From positions 1 through 46,983 of IMG/VR virus record IMGVR_UViG_3300037751_000148: a stretch of 46,983 bases of DNA. One strand, given 5' to 3'. This document shows, piece by piece, positions 2,820 through 45,970 of this stretch; position 1 is the stretch's first letter, and every line of letters starts with the position of its first letter. The DNA comes from a virus (lineage: Duplodnaviria > Caudoviricetes). The notes under the pieces were generated by a model, which had not been told where the DNA came from, did not search any database, and saw nothing but the letters and a program-made list of their open reading frames with translations. The translations under genes and the position numbers were made by a program.

Positions 2820-3272
2820 CTACTGGTTCAGAGAGTCTATAGGGGTTCCGTGAACTACTACGCCATCAGCGATGTTGTTATCAACTATCTTAGCGGCATC
2901 ACGGCGCTGGTTCGCCTCTGCTACGTTTCCTACCCATGAAGGGCTGCTTATCGTCGGCCAGACCTGCACTCGAAACAGCTCGTCCGCTCCGATCATCTCT
3001 TCCGCTTTATGAATCGTCATCCTCGGGTTCTTAACGTACTTCATCGGTTCAAGGTCTTCGTCCTTCAGCAGACAGACCTTAACAACCGCGTTTAAGAAGG
3101 GCTCCCCGCCTACAGAGTTAGGAGACAAGAATACCGCGTTGTCGCCGCACTTCAGGAGGTAGACACAGTTCGCTACTTCGATACGATCCACTGCTGCACT
3201 GATATGCCCGGTCAGTACTACATAACTTAAGGTGCTTGTTGCTGCGTCGAAATATCTGTTGTTCGTTCTCAT
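2820..3272 (-). CDS. Hypothetical protein
   Basis: ORF in a tightly packed operon; likely start MRTNNRY at 3272. Confidence 0.6.
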   Translation of the reverse strand: MRTNNRYFDAATSTLSYVVLTGHISAAVDRIEVANCVYLLKCGDNAVFLSPNSVGGEPFLNAVVKVCLLKDEDLEPMKYVKNPRMTIHKAEEMIGADELFRVQVWPTISSPSWVGNVAEANQRRDAAKIVDNNIADGVVVHGTPIDSLNQ

Positions 3273-3282
3273 GATAATCCCC

Positions 3283-3498
3283 TTATCCGATACGTACCCA
3301 CGGAATCCCATCGGCTGTTTTTACAAATCGCCCGGTTAGTCTGCCCGGCGATTGCACCCACTTGTACACTGGGTTTGCACCCTTATACGTCGAACCGGCG
3401 ACCTCAACGATAACGCTACTCTTTCTATTGAGAGATCTGCTGATCATTTCGTTTACGTGGGAGGGTTTTCTGTTTCTTGGGTTACTCATTTTGTCCAT
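3283..3498 (-). CDS. Hypothetical basic protein
   Basis: 71-aa ORF with GGAGG SD, overlapping the upstream gene. Confidence 0.55.
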   Translation of the reverse strand: MDKMSNPRNRKPSHVNEMISRSLNRKSSVIVEVAGSTYKGANPVYKWVQSPGRLTGRFVKTADGIPWVRIG

Positions 3499-3763
3499 CC
3501 TCCAACAGTTTTATTAAGCGCTCTACGCTGTCTGCTAGCCGTGCTGTTTCCTTAGCAAGCCGATCCGTCACCTCCTTAGGGTCCAGCCCTATTTTTGGTT
3601 GATCCCCCCAAGCGTTGAGTGCTTCTTTGATGGTTTCCGCCCTTTCCACCCTGAGTGCTGCTTCGAACTCCTCGCAGGCATTCTCCCTGCTACGCCTACA
3701 TGCCTTGAGCTGCCTATCGGTCAGCTCCGAACCCTTCTTAAACCACCCGCTAACCCTAATCAT
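3482..3763 (-). CDS. Hypothetical helical protein
   Basis: 93-aa ORF with coupled overlaps on both sides. Confidence 0.6.
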   Translation of the reverse strand: MIRVSGWFKKGSELTDRQLKACRRSRENACEEFEAALRVERAETIKEALNAWGDQPKIGLDPKEVTDRLAKETARLADSVERLIKLLEDGQNE

Positions 3764-4221: not shown

Positions 4222-6621
4222 TTATTTTCTCTTTTCGTCAACTATCTCAAATGAGGGTCCAGGGTCAGGACGGTTGTAGGCTAGCTCTATCGCACGGTTG
4301 AACTCGCTTAGGATTGGTCCCTTCCCAGCACTACGCCACTTAGCCACATCGCGCCCTTTTACCACCCTGACTCGGATCTGCTTGGAGCCCTGGCCCCCGG
4401 TACGTATCGACCTTTCGATGGGCTCACTGATCTCCCTACAGATCCGCCGGGCGATGTTACCCAGGTCATGAGGAGGGCTTCCTATGCAGTTACTAGATAG
4501 GAACGCAGCCACCACTTCATCGTCTATCACTGAGCAAACAAACGGCCCTGTTCTGGAATCGATTGCATCTTCTACAAGAGCGGTCAGGTAGTCACCATTG
4601 CCCCTGCCCATCTCTCGCTTAGCTCTGGTGTCTGGTGGAGATTCGCTATGGTCGAACGCGCTCAAGTCCTTCGCCCTAAGGTATGCCTCCAAGTGCGCCG
4701 GCCCATCCGTGCCGATCCACTTTGTCAGAGCCCTGTAGTAGCTGGCGTGTTGCGGGTCTGCTGTTATTTTATAGACCCAGTACCGCCTTTCGTCTGGCCT
4801 TAGCGGCAGAGCATCGTCGTAGTTTGTGAACCCAATGAAGTTAGAAAAGATCTTCTGATCCGCCTGCTTACGATTTTTTATGTTAACCGGTAGCACTGGC
4901 TCCGTAATCTGTGGGGAGAGATCATCCACGAACCCCCGCGCCTTCGTATGGGGGATATCATCCAGGAGCACAACCGTTGTTCTGTCCAGGTAGTAGTTAA
5001 ACTCGCCCTCGATGTTCTTCACCCTGGTTGACGCCACGTTGTGCGCGCCTACTACACGTTTAAGCACTTCGAACAGCCTGTTCTTACCGACACCACCTTT
5101 CGATACTAGCAGCGGCATCCACTGGATTCTAAGCTCCGGCCGCTGCACAGTAAACGCTATCCAGTTCCACATAATCTCTCGTGCTGCTTCGTCCGGAAAC
5201 AGGTAGTTCATATGGTCAACAAACGGCTGCACCTTGTCGGGGTCGCATACCTCTGGCAGCTCCTGCATTGATCCCTGATACGGATTGAACCGCCTAACGC
5301 CTATCTCATCGGTATACACCCGCGCCGTACCGGGATGATACGCTATGGACCTCACAGACTGTCTATTCGGGCTCCCCATCCATCGGGTAGACACCTGAGT
5401 CTGTCCAACCCTAAGGTTCTTAGCCATGTTCTTAAAGTCCTCCATCGAGAGGATCGCCGCGCTTGGTGGCAGTGTCAGATCGACCACCTGTGAACCTTCA
5501 GTAACAAAGATGAACCGATCGTGCGCCTCATCGTCTGTTATCTGCCCGCCTGTCCTGTGCGCTGCAGTCTCATCAACCTCCCCACCGAACCCATCCAGAT
5601 CTATGCCCCCGGCCGTAGGTTCGTGGGGAGGTGTTACGGTCACTGCATCAGGTACCACAGGCTCAGGGGTCGGTGTTACAGGCTCATGGCGTGTCACCCC
5701 CCCACCACCCGCCAAACTCTTCGCCGGCGCAGTATCAAGCGCTACAAGGGGCAGCTTATCCGCCATCTGAGCGTATGCCCTGGTCACTTTCCCTAGTGCA
5801 TCCTGAAGCGTGAACAGGTCCCCACGCGGTTGCTCAACCAGGGTATGGAAGTGGGTCATCATGACAACGGCTTCAGCCTGCGTTACGCCACTCCGCACCA
5901 AGTGCCCGGCGTAGGCCGTCGCCCAACTGTCCCTAGTACCCGCAGGTACAGCGTCCGGCAGTGGGTCACATACAAACTCACTCCCGGCATACCCATACAG
6001 ATCCAGCGAATCAGTTACAGACAGGTTCCCAACCGATGGCGGGAGGTATTGAGGTGCAGGGAGGTTGAGCGAGTGGTCTATCAGGGCTTTGTCTGCTGAG
6101 CTGTTGGATACTTGGAGTGGGATCGTATAGGTGGGGAGGTTATGGAGGTCAGGAAGGCATCGGGATATCAGAGCATTCAACACCCAGGCAGGGGCTTGAG
6201 CATACGTGCTCCTATCCCGCCAGTTGCCGCGTCTGGCTGTATACGCGCCGTCGCTTCTGGTTGAAGGAGGTACGACGACATAGCTATGCCAACTCTTCGC
6301 ATCTACGCCCCTCAACATGCCTGTTACTGAGTGGATGTCCTGCCCTTCAGGGTGAGCATAAAACCAATGGTACCCGCCCGGAGTCTTGTTTACAGCAGTC
6401 TCAGGCAAGTGGCCGTTGGCTATCAGCCATGCCATTGTTTCCTTTCCACCCGATCGATAATCGAAGTCAACCACAACCACCCCATTGCCCGTAAGCATGG
6501 CCGTATTCTGTTTGTGGTGGTTTACAGGTACTGACTCAGTTAGCAGCTGCCAGCCCTTTATAACTGGCGTCCTGGTTGATCGAGTGACGGGGAATACAAT
6601 AGGGAACGGTAACGCTATCAT
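4222..6621 (-). CDS. Bifunctional primase-polymerase (Prim-Pol) fused to SF3-type helicase
   Basis: N-terminal VVVDFD, TPGGYHWFY, YVVVPPS (AEP prim-pol); PriCT-like GTRDSWATAYAGHL; Walker A GGVGKN; Walker B VLLDD; FTNYDDALPL..DERRY. Confidence 0.9.
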   Translation of the reverse strand: MIALPFPIVFPVTRSTRTPVIKGWQLLTESVPVNHHKQNTAMLTGNGVVVVDFDYRSGGKETMAWLIANGHLPETAVNKTPGGYHWFYAHPEGQDIHSVTGMLRGVDAKSWHSYVVVPPSTRSDGAYTARRGNWRDRSTYAQAPAWVLNALISRCLPDLHNLPTYTIPLQVSNSSADKALIDHSLNLPAPQYLPPSVGNLSVTDSLDLYGYAGSEFVCDPLPDAVPAGTRDSWATAYAGHLVRSGVTQAEAVVMMTHFHTLVEQPRGDLFTLQDALGKVTRAYAQMADKLPLVALDTAPAKSLAGGGGVTRHEPVTPTPEPVVPDAVTVTPPHEPTAGGIDLDGFGGEVDETAAHRTGGQITDDEAHDRFIFVTEGSQVVDLTLPPSAAILSMEDFKNMAKNLRVGQTQVSTRWMGSPNRQSVRSIAYHPGTARVYTDEIGVRRFNPYQGSMQELPEVCDPDKVQPFVDHMNYLFPDEAAREIMWNWIAFTVQRPELRIQWMPLLVSKGGVGKNRLFEVLKRVVGAHNVASTRVKNIEGEFNYYLDRTTVVLLDDIPHTKARGFVDDLSPQITEPVLPVNIKNRKQADQKIFSNFIGFTNYDDALPLRPDERRYWVYKITADPQHASYYRALTKWIGTDGPAHLEAYLRAKDLSAFDHSESPPDTRAKREMGRGNGDYLTALVEDAIDSRTGPFVCSVIDDEVVAAFLSSNCIGSPPHDLGNIARRICREISEPIERSIRTGGQGSKQIRVRVVKGRDVAKWRSAGKGPILSEFNRAIELAYNRPDPGPSFEIVDEKRK

Positions 6622-7050: not shown

Positions 7051-7130
7051 GGGCTTTTGTATTGGCGGGGTTCCCCCTTTTGTACGTGCTGGGAATTCCT
7101 TGTAGCGCCGTTCCTGGCTTGGTGATTTCG

Positions 7131-7405
7131 TGATGCAGTACGGTTTAGCGCTTTTACTGCATCACCTAACTGCATCACCTCATAACCCCTTGATGCTGAA
7201 AATGTTTTGATGCATGTGATGCAGTGATGCAGTTATTTCTTATTCAATATATATATATATATATATATAGGGCTACAGCATCAGTAGCAGGTAGTAGGTA
7301 AGGGGGGAGAGGGGGAGAGAGGTTCAAACTCATGCATCACTGCATCAAAACGCTCTAGCCTTAGTGGCACTAGGGATAGAGCGTGATGCAGTTAGGTGAT
7401 GCAGT
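7131..7405. repeat. Putative replication origin: ten TGATGCA iterons, perfect 23-bp inverted repeat, central (AT)11
   Basis: TGATGCA/TGCATCA at 7131, 7158, 7171, 7208, 7217, 7225, 7333, 7341, 7384, 7397; 7156-7178 is the reverse complement of 7383-7405; (AT)11 at 7247-7268; noncoding and near the primase gene. Confidence 0.65.
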
Positions 7406-7407
7406 TC

Positions 7408-8460
7408 TTAAGCCGCTACTGTTTCCCACTGTTTAGGCGATAAAGTAAGTATTTGACCGCCAATTGACTCTAATTCGGTCGCTCTATCGTAAGATTCGTG
7501 GTTGTTGGCTATTTCAGTGACCGCGTTGAGGAACCCCCATTGAGAAAGATCGCCATTACGGATCAGATTACTAAGCATCGATTCTTGCTCGTTGTCCGAT
7601 AGAGCGAATTGTTTAGCAAGGGTCTGCACGGCTTCGAGTGGCTTGGAGGCCATCGGACCGTTGGCGGATTGTTGCATTGTGGATAGGATTCGTTCGAATG
7701 CACTGCCATCAGCCAATGCTTGGATGATATCCCGGATCTGGTAGCTGATCTGGAGGCGGTCCGCTTGAATGGAATCGTTGCTCCGAATGACGAAATCAGG
7801 ACAGTCGATTATCCTGGCTCCTAGATGGCGCTTTTTCATGCTACCCAGGCCGCTGATAGGCATGGTCATGCCGTTAGTACAGACTAGGCGGTAGATAAGG
7901 GGCTGGATGACTGCAGAGCCCATGCCGATCTCTGAGTTGCTAACCACGAACCCGGCTTGAACAAGATCGCCTTTGCGCACTTCGCCTTCGATTTTAGGAA
8001 ATAGGATTTTCATGTAGAGGCGCTTATCGGTAATCGCGAAGCTGGCGGGCTCTATTTGCGTCGAGACGGTGCTTAAAGCGCTCAAGGTGGCCTCAGCTAT
8101 CAGGTCGTGGTCTATGCGCTTGTAACGGTCGCTTAAGAAGGCCCTGGCATGGTTGCCAAGAGTACGTACCATTCGGCGCTCGGGTTCATTGTGAAGGATT
8201 GTGTTGACAGTATCGGAGAGCTGAGCGGGATAGTCTGTTCTCATGCGGTCATAGAACCGGGTAGGGATCTTGAGTCGAGTCGCTATCTGTTGATGCGCAT
8301 GATCCGATACCGTGAACGTGTCGGTTCCGTCTCCGACCCTGAGGATGGACATTTGTTGGTCGAATTGCATCGCCCCTGTATCAGCAACGAGATCCCGCTT
8401 GCTGTTTGACTCAGTTTCGATCTGTTGAGCGAGTTGGACTAGAGATAATGAAGTTTTCAT
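7408..8460 (-). CDS. DUF932/DUF945-family protein
   Basis: RAFLSDRYKRID, NSEIGMGS, YRLVCTNGM and WGFLNAVT motifs. Confidence 0.8.
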   Translation of the reverse strand: MKTSLSLVQLAQQIETESNSKRDLVADTGAMQFDQQMSILRVGDGTDTFTVSDHAHQQIATRLKIPTRFYDRMRTDYPAQLSDTVNTILHNEPERRMVRTLGNHARAFLSDRYKRIDHDLIAEATLSALSTVSTQIEPASFAITDKRLYMKILFPKIEGEVRKGDLVQAGFVVSNSEIGMGSAVIQPLIYRLVCTNGMTMPISGLGSMKKRHLGARIIDCPDFVIRSNDSIQADRLQISYQIRDIIQALADGSAFERILSTMQQSANGPMASKPLEAVQTLAKQFALSDNEQESMLSNLIRNGDLSQWGFLNAVTEIANNHESYDRATELESIGGQILTLSPKQWETVAA

Positions 8461-8472
8461 GATTTTAACCCT

Positions 8473-8985
8473 TTAGATTAGGTTGTTTGATGCAAATGAG
8501 AATGAGCCTTCGTGGGTCACTATAATATGATCCAGCACCTGAATATCGAACATGAACAGACAGTCTTTAATTGCTGTAGTCAGTGTTCTATCGGCTTGAG
8601 AAGGGACCAGACTGCCCGATGGGTGATTGTGGGAGAGGATAACGGCAGACGCATTTAGCAGTAGTGCAGATTTCGCTATTTCACGAGGGTAGACAGAAGC
8701 TCTGGATACTGTTCCCAAGGCTTCGTCTTTTATCTCAATAACTCTGTGCTGATTATCGAGATAGGCAACGCTCATTACTTCGCGTTCGCCGCCTCCTATG
8801 CGAAGGCGGAATAGATTCTTAGCTGTATCAGCGTCGGTTATTCTCGGACCGGCTTCCCTCATGCGGGATTCTAAGATCCGTAAAGCGTGACGTATAACAC
8901 TATCGTCGGACGACACACTACCTGCAGAATTGCTAACTGAGCAATAAACTGGCGCATCTTCAGTATTGATGGTTTTTGTGTTCAT
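8473..8985 (-). CDS. radC: RadC-like JAB/MPN domain protein
   Basis: ERE...YLDNQHRVI, GTVSRASVYPREI, HNHPSG...PSQAD...VLDHIIV. Confidence 0.92.
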   Translation of the reverse strand: MNTKTINTEDAPVYCSVSNSAGSVSSDDSVIRHALRILESRMREAGPRITDADTAKNLFRLRIGGGEREVMSVAYLDNQHRVIEIKDEALGTVSRASVYPREIAKSALLLNASAVILSHNHPSGSLVPSQADRTLTTAIKDCLFMFDIQVLDHIIVTHEGSFSFASNNLI

Positions 8986-24078: not shown

Positions 24079-24256
24079 TGTTTCTGCCTGCGATACGGTT
24101 ATTAAGGGGTTCGGCCTGGTACGGGACAAGGACGGCAAGCCAAAGATCGATGACCCAAAAAATCTGCCTATCGAGATCTACAACATGCTGACCGACGAGG
24201 AGAAGATTTCGTTTCCTAGAGATGGCGCTTACAGAGTCGGTGGAGATGAGCGATAA
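24071..24256 (+). CDS. Hypothetical protein
   Basis: GTG start after AGGAGG. Confidence 0.55.
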   Translation: MSNVSACDTVIKGFGLVRDKDGKPKIDDPKNLPIEIYNMLTDEEKISFPRDGAYRVGGDER

Positions 24257-25067
24257 AACAGCAGAGTTTTTTAAGCGTCATAGCAAGGTAGTTCTATACC
24301 TATCGGCAGGGAAGGACTCGGCATCCTGCCTATGGCTCTTGGAGCCTTACTGGGACCGGATGACCGTCATGTGGGCAAACCCTGGCAACCCGTACCCTGA
24401 GACTGTCGCCTACATGGAATGGATAGCTGGTATGGTTCCGAACTTTGTTGAGGTGAGAGGTAACCAACCCGATTGGGTTAAGAAGTTCGGGCACCCGGTA
24501 GATATACTCCCTGTCTTAGACTCCCCGGTCATGCCTATCCCTGGCAACGAGAAGAACCCGAAGCTGCAGCCGGTCTATAACTGCTGTTTCGATAACTTCT
24601 GGAAACCAGCGATGGACTGGGTTGAGGCGAACGGGTTCACAGGTGTCATACGCGGGCAGAAGGTCTGTGACAGCCTCAGGACTACCTTACTAAGTGGTCA
24701 ATGGGATAATGGGAAGGAGTTCTACCACCCCATCGAAGACTGGGACAACGAACGTGTGATGAGGTATCTTGGTGACCGCGTACCGGATTCTTACAAGAGG
24801 GGTCTAAAATCGTCCCTCGACTGCATGAACTGCACAGCCTATGTTAAGGAGAGTCCGGGCAGGATCTCTGATCTCGCTCTTATCGATCCGTCTGCAGCTC
24901 AAGAGGTTCGTCGGATACACGCATACGTCAGGGAAAAAGCAATGGACGCAATACAGGCTATGGAAGGACCGGTACCCTATGTTCCGGAGACTCTAGGGCT
25001 TCAGAGAGCAATCGAAACTGCACAGCAAAACCTACTTAAAGAACGAGGAACTGGATCATGGCACTGA
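24246..25067 (+). CDS. PAPS/APS reductase-family (PP-loop) protein
   Basis: LSAGKDS PP-loop; CC..NFWKP; IRGQK..D; HPIEDW; SLDCMNCT. Confidence 0.85.
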   Translation: MSDKTAEFFKRHSKVVLYLSAGKDSASCLWLLEPYWDRMTVMWANPGNPYPETVAYMEWIAGMVPNFVEVRGNQPDWVKKFGHPVDILPVLDSPVMPIPGNEKNPKLQPVYNCCFDNFWKPAMDWVEANGFTGVIRGQKVCDSLRTTLLSGQWDNGKEFYHPIEDWDNERVMRYLGDRVPDSYKRGLKSSLDCMNCTAYVKESPGRISDLALIDPSAAQEVRRIHAYVREKAMDAIQAMEGPVPYVPETLGLQRAIETAQQNLLKERGTGSWH

Positions 25068-25833: not shown

Positions 25834-27495
25834 GTGGCCTTCGGCTTCACCTATACTCTACCGACGATCACAGGGACCCATACTGACCTACCAGTAGTCC
25901 TGAAGACCGCTGACTTCCCTACAGCAGCTGTAGACGGGGGATCGTCCTCCCTCCTTAACGGCGGCGGGGATCTCCGCGCCTATACAAGTAGTGCCAAGAC
26001 AACCCAGCTCCCGCTTCAAGTTATTCGGTTTGTGACAGGAGGCACACCCGACTGTCAGGTATGGGTAAAAGTACCCTCTGCAGCAACTAGCTCCACAATC
26101 TACCTTGAAGCCGATGATGTAGAAACCACACAACCAGCTGTGACCAATGCGTTTGGCCGCAATGCTGTATGGGCTGACTACGTGGCTGTATGGCATCTAG
26201 ATAGCCTAACCGATTCGACAGGAAACGCTCATGATCTAGCAGAGGTCGGCAGTCCAAGCGCGGGGGAGACTGACCCGTTCGGAAGTACCGGGGCATATAG
26301 GGTTACAGGAGGCAACTATTTAGAAGCCTCTTCTTGGGCGAAGGTGCCCCAACCATTTTGGGCACAGGCTTGGGTTAAACCGGATTCTGGCATTACGCAA
26401 ACCATTTTCTCTCAAGGCTCCTCTCTGGAGAATAGTTGGGAAGCGTTACTTATACGGGCTACGTCGAAATGGGAGATTAACTACTCAGGTGCTGGGACAC
26501 CAAGCGGCGCAGATGTAACGAACGGTGTTTGGCAGCTTGCCCACACAAGGATGTTTGGCGGGGAACCAAGGGTCTACGATAACGGCGTCAATGTCGTAAC
26601 AGGAACGCAATCGGGAGAGGCAGGTACTAAAGATGAGTTCGCTCTTGGGATTCTTCTTCGAACAGGAAGTCAGTTAAATCTAGCTGGCTATCTATCTGAA
26701 GTTTGGGTCAGGGAAACGCCGCCTTATACTTTACCCGATGATTTGCAGGCTTGGTCAGAGACAGAGTACAGCAACCAATCCGCTGCAACCGCATGGGGCA
26801 CAGTCGGGGACTGGGAGGACTCGGCGGGAGGAATAACCGGATCTGGAACCCCTCAGGCGACTACTGCAACAGCCTCTGCAGCCGGTATCATCGGCAGATC
26901 TGGAACAGGAACCCCACAGGCTGCAACAGCAACAACCTCTGCAGCTGGAGTAATCGGTAGATCCGGTACCGGGGAACCACAGGCCGAAACTGCAACCTCA
27001 ACCGGCTCCGGATCTGTTGGCCTGACAGGTTCAGGTTCGCCCCAGGCCGAAACTGCAACGACAACCGCCTCTGGTACCCTAACAAGGGCCGGTACTGGGT
27101 CACCACAGGCCGAAACTGCAACAACAACTGCCTCGGGTACCCTAACAAAGATCGGTACCGCCGTTGTCCAATCAGCAACCGCCACAGCAACCGCCTCTGG
27201 TGTGATTGGCAGGTCCGGTACCGGGTCACCGCAGGCCGGAGCAGCTTCGGTCACAGCCTCAGGATCTGTTGTAAAAACAGGTACTGGGTCACCCCAGGCA
27301 GCGACAGCGACAGCGTCTGGTGAAGGTGTAGTATCTGCCATAGGGGTTGTCACAGGCTCTGGATCACCACAGGCTGTAACTGCAACAGCGTCCGGAGAGG
27401 GCATAGTGATTGGTACAGGAGGGGACGGTGGCACAAGGCGGCAGAGATCTATGGCTGCTTTGGTTGGGTCACGGCGGCGGCGGCGAGCTGCATAG
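25834..27495 (+). CDS. Fibre/adhesin-like protein: DUF2341-like and LamG domains plus nine 21-aa repeats
   Basis: GGDLRAY...VWVKVP...YVAVWHL..DSTGN; repeats of type TGSPQAxTATASGxG; Arg-rich C-terminus. Confidence 0.75.
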   Translation: MAFGFTYTLPTITGTHTDLPVVLKTADFPTAAVDGGSSSLLNGGGDLRAYTSSAKTTQLPLQVIRFVTGGTPDCQVWVKVPSAATSSTIYLEADDVETTQPAVTNAFGRNAVWADYVAVWHLDSLTDSTGNAHDLAEVGSPSAGETDPFGSTGAYRVTGGNYLEASSWAKVPQPFWAQAWVKPDSGITQTIFSQGSSLENSWEALLIRATSKWEINYSGAGTPSGADVTNGVWQLAHTRMFGGEPRVYDNGVNVVTGTQSGEAGTKDEFALGILLRTGSQLNLAGYLSEVWVRETPPYTLPDDLQAWSETEYSNQSAATAWGTVGDWEDSAGGITGSGTPQATTATASAAGIIGRSGTGTPQAATATTSAAGVIGRSGTGEPQAETATSTGSGSVGLTGSGSPQAETATTTASGTLTRAGTGSPQAETATTTASGTLTKIGTAVVQSATATATASGVIGRSGTGSPQAGAASVTASGSVVKTGTGSPQAATATASGEGVVSAIGVVTGSGSPQAVTATASGEGIVIGTGGDGGTRRQRSMAALVGSRRRRRAA

Positions 27496-27504
27496 GAGGC
27501 TAAA

Positions 27505-28239
27505 GTGGCCGGATCAACGGATGTACTAGGACCCTCAGCGAACCCTCAGTTTACCCTTGGGACTTCTGTTCTTGGGATGTTCCATGAGGGAACCAGCGAA
27601 GCCCAGGCAGAGACAGCGACAGCCTCTGGTAGTGGTGTCATGGGGAAGTCCGGCACCGGCGCACCCCAGGCCGCTACCGCCACTGCGTCAGGATCGGGTG
27701 TTATTGGCAACGAAGCAACCGGATCACCCCAGGCCACCACAGCGATAGTATCGGGCTCTGGATCTGTCGTAAAGACTGGGGTCGGATCACCCCAGGCCAC
27801 CACAGCGATAGTATCGGGTTCTGGGGTTACCGGTAGGTTCGGATCTGGATCGCCCCAGGCCATCAGGGCAACCGCATCAGCCTCCGGGGCCGTGACTAGA
27901 ATCGGTACCGGGTCCCCCCAGGCAACAACAGCTACCAGCTCCGGTTCCGGAATCGTTGAGGCGGATGGTACTGGGAACCCTCAGGCATCCGCAGCCAGTG
28001 CTTCTGGGTCAGGGATCATTGCCAGGATCGGCACTGGATCACCCCAGGCCACTACCGCCACTGCGTCCGGAGAGGGCATCGTCGAGGATACCGTAATCAC
28101 CGGGGCAGGAGCCGTACAGGCATCTGAAGCCACAGTGAATGGAACGGGTGAGATAAACGGAGTAGGGGACGGTGACGGTACTAGGAGGCAGAGGGCGCTA
28201 TCTGCTATTATTCAATCACGTAGTCGGAGAGTCGCATGA
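27505..28239 (+). CDS. Repeat fibre-like protein (nine 21-aa repeats), paralogous to the C-terminal part of the upstream gene
   Basis: Same repeat unit and same GDG..GTRRQR..SR.RR.A tail. Confidence 0.75.
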   Translation: MAGSTDVLGPSANPQFTLGTSVLGMFHEGTSEAQAETATASGSGVMGKSGTGAPQAATATASGSGVIGNEATGSPQATTAIVSGSGSVVKTGVGSPQATTAIVSGSGVTGRFGSGSPQAIRATASASGAVTRIGTGSPQATTATSSGSGIVEADGTGNPQASAASASGSGIIARIGTGSPQATTATASGEGIVEDTVITGAGAVQASEATVNGTGEINGVGDGDGTRRQRALSAIIQSRSRRVA

Positions 28240-36237: not shown

Positions 36238-38040
36238 GTGGCTATTACAACATTCAAGACATTCTCAGCCGGTGAGGTACTGACAGCCTCAGACCTCAAC
36301 TCGTCCTTTACCCATATCACCGGTAACGGCGAGGATCTCGGGTGGCCGTCAACTCAGGCCAAGGATATGGACGGGACTGAGTTAATCCTTGACGTTGACG
36401 CGGATACGTCGATCCACGCTAGCACTGATGACCAGATTGACTTCAAGGCTGGTGGTACAGACGTAATGATCGTCGATGCTTCCGGTGTCAGGGTTGTTGG
36501 TGACTTTCAGAACTACGGAGCTGGGGCTGTTACGTCAAACTTGTCGCTGGGACTTGATGCGCTCGGCGCTAACACCTCAGGGGCCGGCAACACAGCGGTA
36601 GGTCAGGGTGCTCTCGATGCTAATACCTCAGCATCTAACAACACTGCAGTAGGTCAGAACGCTCTCACTGCCACTGTTACCGGGGCTCAGAACGTCGCTG
36701 TTGGTAAGGATGCTTTGGCTCTCAATACGGTTGGCAATAACACAGCTTTAGGGTACCTCGCCCTCGCTTCGACTGTTACAGGACAGCAGAACACAGCTGT
36801 TGGTGCGAGTTCCTTGAATAACAACACAGCCTCTGGACTGACAGCCGTAGGGTTCAATTCTCTTGGTGCTAACACCTCTGGGACCAGTAACACTGCAGTT
36901 GGTACCTCAGCAGCTGCTTCTACTACTACCGGGGGCGGTAACACCGCAGTTGGCAACAGTGCGCTGACTACCAATACTACCGGGGGCGGTAACACCGCAG
37001 TTGGCAACAATGCTCTCACGCTCTCTACTGGGGACGGTAACACTGCAGTTGGTCAGGCTTCCCTAGATGCCAACACTACCGGGTCCAACAACGTTGCAGT
37101 TGGGAAGGATGCCCTCACTGCAGTCACTACCGGTGTTGATAACACTGCAGTAGGTACGGAAGCCCTTAGGGATAACGTTTCCGGTAATAACAATACAGGC
37201 ATAGGCAGAGCAGCGCTTAGGGAGTGTACAGCGTCGGACACAACAGCAGTTGGGCATCTGTCGTTAGCTGCCTTAACAACCGGGATTAACAATACTGCTG
37301 TAGGTTACAGGGCAGGGGCAGCACTGGTAGGAGGAGGACAGAACTCGATGCTTGGCTATAACGCCGCTGGTGGGACTACCTTTGCCGGTACCTCCTGCAC
37401 AGCTATCGGGTACAATACCCTCTCTTTGGCTCAGACTGTCTCGTTCAATACCGCCGTAGGGTCTGGAGCACTCGCCTCCCTGACAACCGGAGGTAGACAG
37501 ACTGCCGTTGGGGCTGGTGCCCTGACTGCTGCGACTACAGGGTTTTCCAACGCGGTCTTTGGGCGCGATGCTGGTAAGAACGTAACTACCGGCGGGGGCA
37601 ACATAATACTTGGATCAGAAAACTCCTCCGGTACTTATCTACCAGTTTTCGATGTTACAGCGAATGACAACAGGGTTGTTGTGGGGCATACCTCTGTAGC
37701 CGTCGCCTACGTTCAAGTAGCTTGGACAGTCACATCAGATATCCGTGATAAGGCGAACATCCAGCCTGTGGCGCACGGACTAGGGTTTGTGATGCAACTT
37801 AACCCAATCTCATACCAGTTCAAGGTTGATCGTGATAGTGAGGAAGTTCACGGACCTGTCCGGTATGGGTTCTCAGCGCAGGATATCCTAGCCCTCGAAG
37901 GCGATAGCCCGGTTATCATCGACGCCGAAGATCCGGATCACCTACGACTAACCAGCGAAAACCTGATAGCAGTCCTCGTTAACGCTATCCAGGATCTGAA
38001 GGCTGAGGTGGATGACCTTAAACAACAGCTTCTAGGGTGA
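36238..38040 (+). CDS. Tail fibre/spike with NTAVG repeats and C-terminal intramolecular chaperone (peptidase S74-like)
   Basis: N-terminal FSAGEVLTASDLN; many 15-17-aa NTAVGxxALxxNTxG repeats; TSDIRDKANI...YGFSAQD...VLVNAIQDL. Confidence 0.88.
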   Translation: MAITTFKTFSAGEVLTASDLNSSFTHITGNGEDLGWPSTQAKDMDGTELILDVDADTSIHASTDDQIDFKAGGTDVMIVDASGVRVVGDFQNYGAGAVTSNLSLGLDALGANTSGAGNTAVGQGALDANTSASNNTAVGQNALTATVTGAQNVAVGKDALALNTVGNNTALGYLALASTVTGQQNTAVGASSLNNNTASGLTAVGFNSLGANTSGTSNTAVGTSAAASTTTGGGNTAVGNSALTTNTTGGGNTAVGNNALTLSTGDGNTAVGQASLDANTTGSNNVAVGKDALTAVTTGVDNTAVGTEALRDNVSGNNNTGIGRAALRECTASDTTAVGHLSLAALTTGINNTAVGYRAGAALVGGGQNSMLGYNAAGGTTFAGTSCTAIGYNTLSLAQTVSFNTAVGSGALASLTTGGRQTAVGAGALTAATTGFSNAVFGRDAGKNVTTGGGNIILGSENSSGTYLPVFDVTANDNRVVVGHTSVAVAYVQVAWTVTSDIRDKANIQPVAHGLGFVMQLNPISYQFKVDRDSEEVHGPVRYGFSAQDILALEGDSPVIIDAEDPDHLRLTSENLIAVLVNAIQDLKAEVDDLKQQLLG

Positions 38041-39035: not shown

Positions 39036-39235
39036 TCGACCCTCAGCAAATTGCCATTTTCATCCGTCTCCCACTCCGGGTGCGGCTCTGCGGTTTCAGG
39101 GTGGCAGAACTCGCCGCAACTATCGCAGTGCTCTCCACTTGGTGAGTGGCAGTCCCTGGTAGCGTAGCGCCAAGATGTATTGCAATCGACGTTCTCACAT
39201 TCGAAATATCGATACCCTGGTACTGGCTTTCTCAT
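39032..39235 (-). CDS. Small zinc-ribbon protein
   Basis: CENVDC...RDCHSPSGEHCDSCG. Confidence 0.65.
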   Translation of the reverse strand: MRKPVPGYRYFECENVDCNTSWRYATRDCHSPSGEHCDSCGEFCHPETAEPHPEWETDENGNLLRVE

Positions 39236-39387
39236 ATGCCTGTCACTCCAAAGTTAAAGCGCCATTGAAGCCTTATGCTCGTCAACGGACCACGAGTGGC
39301 TTGTAACTCACGGATATAGTGCCCGGGTCCGCTGAGTGCAACTAAAAGCTGCCTGAGAGCCAGTGCGTTCACTGTTATAGTTTCCAT
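39232..39387 (-). CDS. Hypothetical protein (51 aa; first gene downstream of attC-like site A)
   Basis: Hand translation METITVNALALRQLLVALSGPGHYIRELQATRGP...; GAGG SD; ATGA coupling to the next gene. Confidence 0.6.
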   Translation of the reverse strand: METITVNALALRQLLVALSGPGHYIRELQATRGPLTSIRLQWRFNFGVTGI

Positions 39388-39400
39388 ATTTACCTCTACG

Positions 39401-39461
39401 CCATAACAAATCGTTGTAATCGGACTGCAAACATCGCAGCCGCTAAACTCTGCCGTTAGGC
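39401..39461 (+). mobile_element. attC: attC-like recombination site A
   Basis: CCATAAC-AAATC-GTTGTAAT-CGGACTGC...GCAGCC-GCTAAAC-TCTGCC-GTTAGGC (R'', 5-nt spacer, L'', stem-loop, L', 6-nt spacer, R'). Confidence 0.8.
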
Positions 39462-39686
39462 GCTATCAGTAATCGTCAGAATACGACCGTCAGCTAAGTC
39501 GATTCTCCCTTGTTGAGTTCCATGACCGCAGCAGCAAGCCACGGTGTAAACACCTCCTGCATTCAATGCAGCAACAATATGATGAATGCACCAATCAATA
39601 CTGTGCACCTTTCCATTTATGGGCATTACAACTTGGTTCTCATACGTCGTTTTGCCGCCGCATTCATCGCATCTTTTACATGTCAT
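39456..39686 (-). CDS. Cassette gene, Cys/His-rich hypothetical protein
   Basis: IDWCIHHIVAALNAGGVYTVACCCGHG; stop TAA lies inside R' of site A. Confidence 0.75.
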   Translation of the reverse strand: MTCKRCDECGGKTTYENQVVMPINGKVHSIDWCIHHIVAALNAGGVYTVACCCGHGTQQGRIDLADGRILTITDSA

Positions 39687-39697
39687 ATTCGATCACC

Positions 39698-39919
39698 CTA
39701 ATTTTCTTCATCAACATTATCGAGTAACGCCTTTTTAAATCGCTCAATCAGCCAAAGCGCATCGCCGCCATCGGCATAAGTGCTGCTAAAAAACTCGTTA
39801 CCATCCAAATCATAACCGGCGAGAACGAAGCCCTTTAACTTTCCATCCAGGTTTTTTAACGTCAAATCCGCATCCGAATCTAGCGTAGTAATTACCGGCA
39901 ATTGAATTACGTTGCTCAA
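39698..39919 (-). CDS. Cassette gene, hypothetical protein (73 aa)
   Basis: Likely TTG start at 39919 after GGAGA; the ORF-track extension is a translation through attC B. Confidence 0.7.
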   Translation of the reverse strand: MSNVIQLPVITTLDSDADLTLKNLDGKLKGFVLAGYDLDGNEFFSSTYADGGDALWLIERFKKALLDNVDEEN

Positions 39920-39937
39920 TATTTTTCTCCAATAATC

Positions 39938-39999
39938 GCCTAACAAGGCGCTCAATCGGACCGGCAAACACCGCTGGCCGCTTAGCTTAATCATTAGGC
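39938..39999 (+). mobile_element. attC: attC-like recombination site B (R' core ATT instead of GTT)
   Basis: GCCTAAC-AAGGC-GCTCAATC-GGACCGGC...GCTGGCC-GCTTAGC-TTAATC-ATTAGGC. Confidence 0.8.
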
Positions 40000-40269
40000 G
40001 TCCTCTAGCTCATCGACGCCGAGTTCACCATTTTCTAACATCGCAGTGACAGCATCATCTAACATCACGTGCACCAGGGTTGATCCATCGGCATCCTCAT
40101 TCTCCAGTTGCCGAGCAAGGCCCTCAACAAATATTGTTTTGTCTGTAATTTCGATGTCGCCGGTTCCATATCTTCGGCCTACCTCGCAGGCATGACAGAG
40201 AATATCAACACCGATTGAAACTGATAAAATTCCGTTTTCCACAGTTACTTTTAGTTGCTGGTCTTTCAT
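39994..40269 (-). CDS. Cassette gene, acidic hypothetical protein
   Basis: GGAGG SD beside attC C; stop TAA lies inside R' of site B. Confidence 0.75.
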   Translation of the reverse strand: MKDQQLKVTVENGILSVSIGVDILCHACEVGRRYGTGDIEITDKTIFVEGLARQLENEDADGSTLVHVMLDDAVTAMLENGELGVDELEDA

Positions 40270-40282
40270 ACCCCCTCCAGAC

Positions 40283-40343
40283 GCATAACCAGTTAATGAA
40301 TGGGAGCTTCGCTTCGCTCGCTCCCTTATCGCCGGCGTTAACC
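40283..40343 (+). mobile_element. attC: attC-like recombination site C
   Basis: GCATAAC-CAGTT-AATGAATG-GGAGC-TTCGCTTCGCTC-GCTC-CCTTATC-GCCGGC-GTTAACC. Confidence 0.75.
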
Positions 40344-40344
40344 G

Positions 40345-40587
40345 TCAATGTTTCCGCACCAAGCCGGTCTTGAACTCCTGCCCGTCTGGGTCGGTAACGT
40401 AGTACTCTCCGTTCTGGCACCGCACGTTCACATCAACGCCGGTCACTCGCTTAAACAGTGCCTTCACCTCTTCCGCCCCGTCGCAGCGAGGTAGTGGCGG
40501 CTTAGGGCACACTCCGCTGTTGCCGTGGAACTTGAACATTTCCTCGCCATCCGGCATAGGTTCTCCGCACAATTTGCACTTGCTCAT
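40345..40587 (-). CDS. Cassette gene, hypothetical protein
   Basis: CKLCGEPMPDGEEMFKFHG..G.CPKPPL; AAGGA SD; ends 1 nt before site C. Confidence 0.75.
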   Translation of the reverse strand: MSKCKLCGEPMPDGEEMFKFHGNSGVCPKPPLPRCDGAEEVKALFKRVTGVDVNVRCQNGEYYVTDPDGQEFKTGLVRKH

Positions 40588-40613
40588 CTTGTTTCCTTTC
40601 TCGCCGGAAAATC

Positions 40614-40651
40614 GGCTAACAAATCACTGGTTTTAAACACTGTGGTTAAGT
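40614..40651 (+). mobile_element. Partial/truncated attC-like site D (array boundary)
   Basis: GGCTAAC-AAATC-ACTG matches an attC left half; GTTAAGT at 40645-40651 but no full L'/stem. Confidence 0.5.
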
Positions 40652-40665
40652 GGCCGTCCCTGGCC
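40652..40665 (-). promoter_or_regulatory. CsrA/RsmA-type binding hairpin
   Basis: The mRNA reads GGCC-AGGGAC-GGCC, an ANGGAN hexaloop closed by C-G. Confidence 0.5.
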
Positions 40666-40673
40666 GATCAGCC

Positions 40674-41846
40674 CTAGCCCCACTGTTCCAAGATGGAGTT
40701 CAGATCGGTACCGTGTGGGTCCGAAGGCTGCTGGAAGTAACCAGACCCAGCCGGGCCATCCGGGTTCTTTGCTACGGTAGCTTCTGGTTCCGACTCAACG
40801 AAGCCAGACCCCGCCGCCGCCGGTTGCGCTGCTACTCGGGGAGAGGCCGCATCAGCTTGCTTATTTCCTTTCCGAGCGCGCCACGCTCCATTCGCTGTCA
40901 GAGTCTTGTTGGCCGAGTGCCTGGCCGCGTCCCAGATCTCTCCGTTAGAATCGACCTCAGGACCGGCCTTCTGCTCAACGATGCCGCCGTACCCGCTTTC
41001 TGCCGCGCCTCGGGGATCGCCATAGACACCGGCCCTAGCCAGGGTATTCGTCTGTTCTGGATCAGGGTCTGGTGTCTCTAATGCCTTAACATAGTCGGGA
41101 ACATCCGGAACGTCGGCAGTCTCTTCGACCGGTCCCGCCGCTGCATTCTGGATGATTGACTGGATCTCTTCAGACGAAGCCCTGGCAACGGCTGCACCAG
41201 TCTCAGCCTCTGGCATAAACCCGCCTAGCGAGAACTTTATCTGTGGGAACTCCGCATCCTCAACGAAGGAGACTTTCGTAATGCAAGCCTGCACTGGTAC
41301 GCCGTGAGATTTAAGAGCCCGGCCGTAGGAGGTCAGTGCCTTAAGACTCATGGTTGGAACCTGCAACATGAACACATCGCCCTTGCCGGGGTTGTTTGGC
41401 GGCACAACATAGAGCCGCTTAACGTCGTGACATGCCTTCCCTTTGGTAGGGTTGCCGTGTGAGTCCATGCCACTGCCCCACTGGTTCATCGGGCACGTTG
41501 CACAGTTGGCGCACTGTGGTTCATCAACAAAGGTATCCGGGCGGATGCCGTCACTGCTTGAACAGTCTGGTGGATCGTCGCTGTCCGGGGTGTATGCGCC
41601 AGAATAGTAGCTCTTGGCGCAATACTTACCGGGTGGATCTGCCAGTAGAACCACAATATTGAGAGGTTGCCCCATAGACAGGGAACTCTCAGTACCGTCC
41701 TTTTTAAACCGGAACACTTTGCCTCGAAGGCTGATCCTCGGGAAAGACTCACGCTGCGTTATCAGCGATTCGTTGGAGTCCGTCCCGTAGTTCTTCAGGT
41801 ACGCCGGTAGTTGCATGCTTTCTGGAATGATCAGATCGTTAGCCAT
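40674..41846 (-). CDS. Putative ssDNA-binding/annealing protein with C-terminal accessory domain
   Basis: PRISLRGKVFR, PDCSSSDGIRPD, CATCPMNQWGS..GKAC, LQVPTMSLK; later WDAARHS...NGAWR; acidic tail; within the replication module. Confidence 0.7.
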   Translation of the reverse strand: MANDLIIPESMQLPAYLKNYGTDSNESLITQRESFPRISLRGKVFRFKKDGTESSLSMGQPLNIVVLLADPPGKYCAKSYYSGAYTPDSDDPPDCSSSDGIRPDTFVDEPQCANCATCPMNQWGSGMDSHGNPTKGKACHDVKRLYVVPPNNPGKGDVFMLQVPTMSLKALTSYGRALKSHGVPVQACITKVSFVEDAEFPQIKFSLGGFMPEAETGAAVARASSEEIQSIIQNAAAGPVEETADVPDVPDYVKALETPDPDPEQTNTLARAGVYGDPRGAAESGYGGIVEQKAGPEVDSNGEIWDAARHSANKTLTANGAWRARKGNKQADAASPRVAAQPAAAGSGFVESEPEATVAKNPDGPAGSGYFQQPSDPHGTDLNSILEQWG

Positions 41847-44846: not shown

Positions 44847-45527
44847 CTACACCCCTCTAGCATACTTGCACTGAGCCTTGTTACAGGGGCACCATCGGCA
44901 ATTGAAGTCCGAAGGGTTCGCCTGCCAAGAGTTGCTGTCACTGGCAATCTGGATCATCTCTGCTCGCTCCTCAAACTCCTCAATGAGTGCTGGCAGCTCG
45001 CCACGGTTATAGGATGCCGTCGTCTTGGTCTTGTGATCAACCCAGACATAGTGAGTGCCGACGTAATCCACCTGAGGGTGCAACAGCATGGCCGACATTC
45101 CAAACAACTTGAGCTGGTCACTGCTCTCCCTGACCTTGCCAGTCTTCCAGTCGATGATTGACGCCTTGTCACCGTGTGTCAGGATTACGTCATAGATAAC
45201 CCTCAGGTAGGCGTCCGCCGCGAACCAGCTGCACTGAGTATAGCCCCTGGTGAACGCTATCTGTTGCTCCACTCGGACATTCCAATCGTTCTTTGCCTGC
45301 AACTGGATGCCCGCAACCACTGGCTCCACGCTCCGAAGTTCGTAAGGAACTGGCTTGCCTCCAACCGCCAGCTCAAGATCCTTGTGAGCCTTCTTGCCAC
45401 GTAGCGTTGCTTCGTTGTCTGTGAACGGGATTCTCTGCCCCTTAGGGGCAAAGTTCTTCCAGTAGCACAGGAGCGGGCACTTTTCGAAGTCGGACAGTCG
45501 GCTCCATGAGTAGGCTATCTGAGTCAT
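44847..45527 (-). CDS. PD-(D/E)XK exonuclease (Cas4/RecB-like)
   Basis: SWSRLSDFEKCP, RGKKAH, IIDWKTGK, QLKLF, CRWCP...C. Confidence 0.88.
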   Translation of the reverse strand: MTQIAYSWSRLSDFEKCPLLCYWKNFAPKGQRIPFTDNEATLRGKKAHKDLELAVGGKPVPYELRSVEPVVAGIQLQAKNDWNVRVEQQIAFTRGYTQCSWFAADAYLRVIYDVILTHGDKASIIDWKTGKVRESSDQLKLFGMSAMLLHPQVDYVGTHYVWVDHKTKTTASYNRGELPALIEEFEERAEMIQIASDSNSWQANPSDFNCRWCPCNKAQCKYARGV

Positions 45528-45970
45528 ACCGGTGCCCCACGGTGGGACAGAAGATTACCGCCTCTCTCTTTTATCCGGTCGAATACTTCATCCCTGTGAA
45601 TGGATACGTCAGACGGAGCCGTGATCCCTACTTTAATGCCTCGTCTGTCCATAGCCAGTACCTCGAAGAATACCCTCCCATATACGGAACTGCCACCCGC
45701 CCCTTCGATCTCAAAGACAATGCCTTCTCCGATCTTTAAATGTTCCGTCGCTTGGAGACTTCCGTGAGCGGATGTTTCTAAAACGATCGGAGTCCCACGC
45801 TCGAATACGCTCCCCGGAGTGACGGATAGTCCCTTCCTAGCAAGTATTCCCCGATGTGGTTCCATCTCGATATAGAGAACAGCCGTTTTCCCTGTTGAGC
45901 GAACCTCTACAGTGATTAGCTCGTCACCGATTATTACAGACCTCCCCGCCTTTATCGAAAGTACTAGCAT
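45524..45970 (-). CDS. csrA: Tandem CsrA/RsmA-like RNA-binding protein
   Basis: N-terminal MLVLSIKAGRSVIIGDELITVEV and C-terminal IKVGITAPSDVSIHRDEVFDRI both align to CsrA. Confidence 0.8.
   Translation of the reverse strand: MLVLSIKAGRSVIIGDELITVEVRSTGKTAVLYIEMEPHRGILARKGLSVTPGSVFERGTPIVLETSAHGSLQATEHLKIGEGIVFEIEGAGGSSVYGRVFFEVLAMDRRGIKVGITAPSDVSIHRDEVFDRIKERGGNLLSHRGAPV

Follow-up and report, generated by a model that had tools for sequence, protein, structure and literature searches.

An integron-type array of reversed gene cassettes in a phage genome and its counterparts in other phages

Introduction

Integrons are usually treated as bacterial systems, with cassettes that face one way for reading from the promoter Pc. 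In sedentary chromosomal integrons, toxin–antitoxin cassettes can oppose the direction of the array, as isolated members with a promoter of their own. One such case is parDE3 (10.1101/2023.11.21.568050). The integrase IntI prefers the bottom strand of attC, a preference set by extra bases in the site (Nivina et al. 2016, PMC5027507). Integrons have also been described as banks of anti-phage defence genes (10.1101/2024.07.02.601686, 10.1101/2024.07.02.601719). Clusters of attC without intI (CALINs) are known from virulent phages, with IntI1 recombination of five of six sites; the sites of phage PH101 recombined with IntI1, the bottom strand better than the top (Qi et al. 2023, PMC9892861). Phage attC arrays as such are thus already published (Qi et al. 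2023), and the new part, as far as the accessible sections of that paper go, is reversal as a phage-wide class. Its text calls TJE1 and PH101 typical and does not use the words 'reverse' or 'opposite'; its figures and annotation file may show the reversal. A literature search, with subscription journals mostly outside its scope, yielded no description of reversed phage cassettes as a class, and neither did the accessible parts of PMC8876359, 10.1101/2022.02.06.479319, 10.1101/2023.11.21.568050 and PMC13366799.

The array reported here lies in the phage record IMGVR_UViG_3300037751_000148 (label G000), all 46,983 nt of which were analysed and are referred to as the window. Together with the arrays of other phages surveyed below, it resembles the CALINs of Qi et al. 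(PMC9892861, sections at hand) in having two or more attC sites, no intI, and small phage genes and methyltransferases as cargo; one of their phages, MW202573, has a relative of our ORF B. Those sections make no mention of phage attI lacking intI, or of a phage intI that shares the orientation of reversed cargo. Classical cassettes, as portrayed in the available part of PMC5027507 and as present in R388, share the box order, the extra L'' bases, the G/TT crossover, cross-cassette complementarity, a similar median length and core TAA stops; unlike in these, the ORF here runs antisense to the top strand, the cassette's own attC lies upstream of it, and the newest cassette is predicted to come last in the transcript. 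The likeness to reversed toxin–antitoxin cassettes is that the gene opposes the array direction, and the difference is that here whole arrays are reversed, with 13–26 nt from site to start. Like the defence banks (in the parts of the two preprints consulted), the arrays store conflict genes, but the carrier is the phage, and 15 of 38 annotated reversed cargo proteins are methyltransferases, Mom-like or Lar-like.

Results

The phage genome and its array

The record is a whole phage genome, 96% complete (CheckV), with a terminal repeat of 126 nt and with profile matches to DNA polymerase, primase, helicase, portal and major head proteins. The closest match of its polymerase is in Xanthomonas phage Xp15 (33%), and the sequencing runs containing its DNA are recorded as sediment metagenomes. 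A PF00589 search of the whole 47-kb genome matched no tyrosine recombinase or intI. The array is located near the end of a minus-strand gene run (46981 to 38766), at the junction with the plus-strand virion genes, and consists of the following features:

39232..39387, minus strand: ORF E, 51 aa, PHROG 31465; start 13 nt left of s1
39401..39461, plus strand: attC s1, intact; crossover G/TT at 39455/39456; 47.2 bits, E 3.7e-9
39456..39993, plus strand: cassette X1, 538 nt; two reversed ORFs (A, B) and its own site s2
39456..39686, minus strand: ORF A, 76 aa, small Cys/His-rich protein; its stop TAA is the TTA of the s1 R' core
39698..39919, minus strand: ORF B, 73 aa, PHROG 11040; TTG start after GGAG
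39938..39999, plus strand: attC s2; 41.5 bits, E 1.1e-7; A replaces G at crossover base 39993
39994..40337, plus strand: cassette X2, 344 nt; reversed ORF C and its own site s3
39994..40269, minus strand: ORF C, 91 aa, PHROG 21508 and others; its stop TAA is the TTA of the s2 R' core
40283..40343, plus strand: attC s3, weaker; crossover 40337/40338; 11.7 bits, E 0.15; structure-only detector score 12.75
40338..40627, plus strand: cassette X3; reversed ORF D and a remnant of its own site
40345..40587, minus strand: ORF D, 80 aa, Cys-rich N-terminus; stop TGA 1 nt past the s3 core
40614..40652, plus strand: s4, truncated attC; R'' and spacer kept, stem lost; 7.5 bits, which is noise level
40674..41846, minus strand: 390-aa phage gene, directly upstream of the cargo in the same minus-strand run

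ORFs A, B, C and D all lie on the minus strand, as the first-pass annotation had stated; two of them share cassette X1. Starts with SD-like sequences were found where that annotation had placed them, just beyond each R'' (13, 18, 13 and 26 nt left of the R'' of s1, s2, s3 and s4). Its claim that the sites supply the stop codons is right for A and C, the two ORFs that it named, whose stops are the core TTA of s1 and s2; B ends in a TAG away from any site, and D ends just past the core. The core TTA lies past the G/TT crossover and is therefore part of the cassette itself. A stop within the core is no special trait and mirrors ordinary cassettes: at 106 of 216 bacterial sites a forward ORF ends in the TAA of R''.

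The GC content of cassette X1 is 44.6%, against 52.8% for the genome. None of ORFs A–D has a known function; the array ORFs matched no toxin–antitoxin family in Pfam or PHROGs, and atlas searches for function returned no match for ORF D and only unnamed viral clusters for ORF B. ORF E is probably the cargo with which s1 arrived. No relative of the 390-aa neighbour gene was found, and hence no sister phage with an empty site. With more than one attC site in the space of a few kb and intI absent, the array is a CALIN and would work like that of an integron; it is neither a complete integron, as neither intI nor attI was found, nor a forward array, as all four ORFs are on the minus strand.

Several other features of the window lie outside the array. 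A perfect 23-nt inverted repeat (7156-7178 / 7383-7405) with short repeated units around a TA run occupies positions 7130-7405, between the primase region and a DUF932 gene, and is a possible replication origin. A separate early module (7408-8985) encodes the DUF932 protein and, adjacent to it, a RadC-like JAB protein. CsrA-like domains occur in one protein (45524-45970; Pfam E 4e-14), and coding repeats of 63 nt and about 51 nt in two virion or tail proteins (26839-28082, 36575-37169). A PAPS-reductase-like gene is situated among the virion genes (24222-25067), and a similar gene adjoins reversed cassettes in the bacterial locus L173.

Structure and polarity of the attC sites

Sites s1, s2 and s3 show on the plus strand the box order R''-5 nt-L''-stem-L'-6 nt-R', with an extra base on the left arm. 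Measured against the general attC layout (R''-5 nt-L''...L'-5/6 nt-R', extra bases on the L'' arm), s1 and s2 are strong, s3 is weak and s4 fails. Of the four annotated sites, three are thus attC sites, while s4 is truncated: its first 13 nt are identical to the intact site of a relative (L355), and the match covers R'' and the spacer plus a single further base. A core-like 7-mer at 40646-40652 in s4 may be a remnant or may be there by chance. The crossover triplet in R' is GTT in s1 and s3 and ATT in s2, s4 being truncated; with its crossover G replaced by A, s2 is likely to be a poor substrate for recombination.

Polarity was assessed with a covariance model (R1). Of the 59 bacterial sites with forward ORFs that qualified for it, 43 were used, near-duplicates from Rhodanobacteraceae being omitted. 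The search motif behind R1 was designed from s1 and s2, so that R1 leans to the same site family; its polarity is anchored by bacterial ORFs and the plasmid R388, not by the phage window. Both attC sites of the R388 control scored 48-50 bits, on the strand of dfrB2. In the window, s1 and s2 reached 47.2 and 41.5 bits on the plus strand, and the best overlapping minus-strand scores were 4.8 and 4.9. The top strand of the sites is plus, opposite to all four ORFs, which bears out the polarity first deduced from the asymmetry of the sites. A Pc promoter reading the top strand would run antisense to the cargo.

A structure-only detector gave s1 a score of 16.0, and the bottom-strand fold of s1 had a z value of -2.8. 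The bottom strand is predicted to be slightly more stable than the top in s1–s3, with the full hairpin only as the centroid of s2. Predicted minimum-energy folds of s1–s3 differ from the full recombinogenic hairpin, into which the R388 control folds fully; the fold of s3 was no better than those of shuffled sequences, and s4 gave no fold. The array may now be inactive, given the lost crossover G of s2 and the weak predicted folds, together with the truncation of s4 and the resemblance of s3 to its shuffles.

A search left of s1, the top-strand start of the array, with two attI motifs and a matching core found no attI; nor did a left cassette end or a matching core turn up on that side. A promoter consensus scan gave 8 promoter-like sites against 7.6 expected by chance, and an Rfam search matched no family. 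An initial loose attC scan of the genome, with 10 matches on the plus and 8 on the minus strand, was discarded as too unspecific.

Relatives of the cargo and mobility of the cassettes

For three relatives of ORF D (L355, L357 and L359), homology begins at the left G/TT and ends after the right-hand R'', and the neighbouring sites differ. Since the homology spans exactly this interval, the cassette's own site is the one 5' of the gene. The 7 viral relatives that match D over its full length, 5 of them distinct, all have the core 1 nt from the stop, in the same register, and the site bodies before it are unlike one another; the same core register was found in 18/21 near-full-length metagenome relatives, many of them redundant. 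Contigs of sequencing runs X3 and X5, from two other studies, match ORF C from 39994, and the sequence before 39994 differs. A mobile unit that reaches from TTRRRY to the G of its own attC and stands beside different neighbours is therefore documented for D and C; cassette X1 offers no such case. In two sets of loci, matches to R1 were without exception opposite in strand to the relative of ORF D or ORF A (20/20 in 29 loci and 68/68 in 80 loci); all 88 lie around relatives of D. From these observations, the cassettes are mobile in origin and reversed.

The annotation of the cargo as phage-type agrees with the phage relatives of B, C and D: those of ORF C occur in 118 phage records, and ORF D is absent from 400 sampled bacterial genomes and from plasmids. 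The homologues are attC-flanked only in part. Viral relatives of D have such sites, and the relative of ORF B in MW202573 stands between reversed attC sites; in IMG/VR, none of the three viral relatives of ORF A (67-72%) has an attC model match, and attC was found beside 0/6 relatives of ORF B. In a provirus (L007, around 3001-3572), a shortened core-like site gives the stop of an ORF C relative, and an intact reversed attC lies 256 nt away.

No joint indicating excision of cassette X1 was found in the contigs inspected. Contigs of sequencing run X2 break at s1 and s2, with the piece of cassette X1 at lower depth, which is only a lead for excision. For homologous whole cassettes, a comparison of the site on the left with that on the right was uninformative (20 viral pairs, including 6 that are identical copies). 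A separate test of the flanks leaned to the left one, with a site identity of 0.76 (n=20) against 0.62 for the other (n=4) and a background of 0.65, but was not significant (p 0.07), and neither was its bacterial control.

Orientation of cassettes in viral and bacterial arrays

A scan with a single fixed motif gave 134 loci in viral contigs (48/64 parts) and 149 loci in bacterial genomes (6/64 parts). After removal of sites with <250 nt on a side, 113 viral and 216 bacterial sites were left. A reverse start with SD beside R'' was present at 70/113 viral versus 10/216 bacterial sites, and a forward start with SD beside R' at 7/113 versus 51/216. Viral contigs were mostly reversed (67 reversed, 12 forward, 17 ties; n=96) and bacterial genomes mostly forward (9 reversed, 60 forward, 30 ties; n=99), a contrast with a Fisher p of 2e-19 that is inflated by near-duplicate contigs. 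Without Rhodanobacteraceae, the bacterial figures were 7 reversed, 41 forward and 26 ties. Because the ORF calls are heuristic, ORFs flanking the sites in 56 viral contigs, reverse and forward alike, were also compared with PHROGs; 38/104 reverse ORFs had matches versus 2/93 forward ones. A hand count assigned 15 of the 38 annotated reversed cargo proteins to DNA methyltransferases (12), Mom-like proteins (2) and a Lar-like protein (1). Median cassette length was 325 nt, versus 388 nt in bacteria, and whole viral records held 1-16 attC sites. One phage, G018, has two clusters on opposite strands, both of them reversed (3/3 and 5/6 sites).

Complementarity of the cores places the cassette junctions; it is symmetric and says nothing on polarity. 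Among 99 adjacent viral pairs, R'' is a perfect complement to the left end of its cassette in 61 and to its own R' in 14; the bacterial figures are 153 and 38 of 204. The three cassettes of the window gave 4/4, 3/4 and 3/4 against the left end and 4/4, 2/4 and 2/4 against their own site; in X1, the R'' of s2 complements the left end in 4/4 positions of the variable core and its own R' equally (4/4).

Forward exceptions exist. Forward viral sites were at least 90% like bacterial forward sites in 6/14 cases, reversed ones in 1/70, which suggests that some forward viral sites may be host DNA. Among six loci examined, the reversed bacterial case L155 turned out to be a prophage and L173 to be phage-like. 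PH101, the source of two sites recombined by Qi et al., is reversed, with the top strand plus and the annotated genes on the minus strand; among the other phages of that study MW202573 is reversed, TJE1 forward and P12002L divergent with one site each way, and R1 had no match in 4 of 5 further ones. The notion that reversal holds for all phages is consequently to be narrowed to most arrays, given TJE1 and the 12/96 forward viral units. The survey supports the predicted distinct class: reversed cassettes are phage-associated and form the layout of most sampled phage arrays. Neither did the minus strand emerge as top strand from the covariance model, nor did homologues turn up mainly as forward cassettes in bacteria.

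attI and intI in other phages

Several phage arrays start with a site resembling the attI that lies beside intI in L153, L202 and L199, and its core fits the R'' of the first cassette. A separate scan with the motif of this site found 48 loci (44 distinct viral sites), none of the 48 with intI within 1.8 kb. For 20/44 of these sites, 4 of them tandem copies on one contig, attC lay within 1.6 kb on the proper side, and the longest ORF was reversed at 17 and forward at 2 of the 20. In the viral contig L443, the attI-like site occurs in tandem, in three copies 30 nt apart, like gene-less attI repeats.

IntI scored above the cut-off in 1/50 unselected viral records and in 2/5 further ones, three of which had been chosen for tblastn evidence. 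The gene is intact in G019, G455 and G457, and only two fragments are left in G456; in all four phages it follows the cargo downstream in the same orientation and diverges from the attC top strand. In G456 (L493, G456:10745-11096), next to a reversed array, intI retains only the two ends of the model (its first 95 and last 30 positions), likely a case of intI loss in progress. The order in G019 (L304:1-4300) is methyltransferase, attC, small gene, attC, Mom-like gene, attI-like site, intI, small gene and phage integrase, that is, a phage-borne complete integron with reversed cassettes. G019 and G457 have an attI-like sequence of their own in common, and a tree of 8 IntI proteins resolved no phage clade beyond these two. 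The attI and attC styles resemble betaproteobacterial ones. In G019 (L304:57-1875) and TJE1 (L009:77-1046), some ORFs read past the core and terminate within the neighbouring site, which makes their C-terminus dependent on the neighbour.

Discussion

The locus is probably best understood as an integron-type cassette array in a phage gene run, with reversed genes each preceded by its own attC, likely served by an IntI from outside and likely read from the phage transcript. Starting from the observed polarity, cassette ends and recurrence, and from the attI and intI seen in other phages, we infer the enzyme used, the transcription and the order of losses as follows. An IntI-type integrase encoded outside this genome would insert the cassettes in canonical geometry, with folding of the bottom strand and crossover at G/TT. 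The cargo would be inverted, the recombination geometry not, the cassette gene being built antisense to the top strand. If an intI–attI platform settled in a phage operon with intI facing the operon direction, the array would come to lie upstream of intI; only reversed genes would be expressed there, and a separate phage cassette pool would be selected. The newest cassettes would enter at the promoter-distal end, and the cargo would be read by operon read-through of the minus-strand transcript. In many phages, intI and then attI may have been lost, and the window may represent an orphan eroding from the truncated s4 towards the intact s1. Such decay would fit an attI side on the left, from one example. 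It is likely that phages swap their own accessory and anti-restriction genes via integron integrase. A further step, that phages run a mirror-image integron system of their own, in which IntI and attI are phage-borne and ordinary phage genes become cassettes, is possible and put forward tentatively, because A and B are without attC in 9/9 IMG/VR relatives yet are reversed cassettes here, B also in MW202573.

Four other explanations are less likely. Selection by replication strand, by which reversal keeps the genes co-directional with the fork and the attC bottom strand on the lagging template, with more folding and excision, is compatible with the reading of an IntI-served array but unlikely as the explanation. 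Placement of the bottom strand on the lagging template is reported to raise excision (Loot et al. 2017, PMC5371416, part available), and the cumulative GC skew of the genome, with turning points at 6034 and 38786, is compatible with a leftward fork across the array; skew also tracks gene direction, though, which makes replication and coding bias inseparable by this measure, and such selection alone leaves the co-orientation of intI unexplained. Intergenic repeats in hyperplastic phage regions offer a parallel for another view, in which sites descended from attC now act as short homology linkers or RNA hairpins and are shuffled by phage recombination without IntI. The lack of an integrase in the genome, the eroded sites and the ORFs elsewhere that end inside the next site would suit it; breakpoints at G/TT with unrelated site bodies, cross-cassette core complementarity, attI at array starts and the intact intI of three phages make it very improbable.

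Less probable still is the capture by the phage, as a block, of host cassettes that were already reversed. Bacterial arrays do have reversed members (9/99 units; parDE3 in the passage of 10.1101/2023.11.21.568050), and the betaproteobacterial look of the attI and attC sites points the same way, but relatives of the cargo are phage genes, ORF D is missing from the sampled genomes and plasmids, and the reversed bacterial loci L155 and L173 proved to be a prophage and phage-like. That the polarity was misread, with minus as the top strand and the cassettes as ordinary forward ones, we regard as scarcely credible. On the minus strand the succession of core, SD, ORF and stop in the core does resemble a forward cassette, and complementarity is symmetric; against this, model scores are 47 and 42 versus about 5 bits, the same motif has forward ORFs in bacteria, and the site 5' of ORF D is the one common to its relatives.

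Should the IntI-served reading be true, integrons would also be at work on the phage side of the arms race, in a widespread reversed version with many anti-restriction genes, and host or phage IntI would shuffle phage genomes. A reversed cassette would not be expressed behind a host Pc, so that the bacterial and phage pools would stay apart. The same small genes with and without attC provide a handle on how cassettes first form, and G019 is the best model system for testing the reversed class. If phages do run an integron system of their own, phage arrays would be the counter-defence counterpart of bacterial defence integrons, and the birth of cassettes would become observable.
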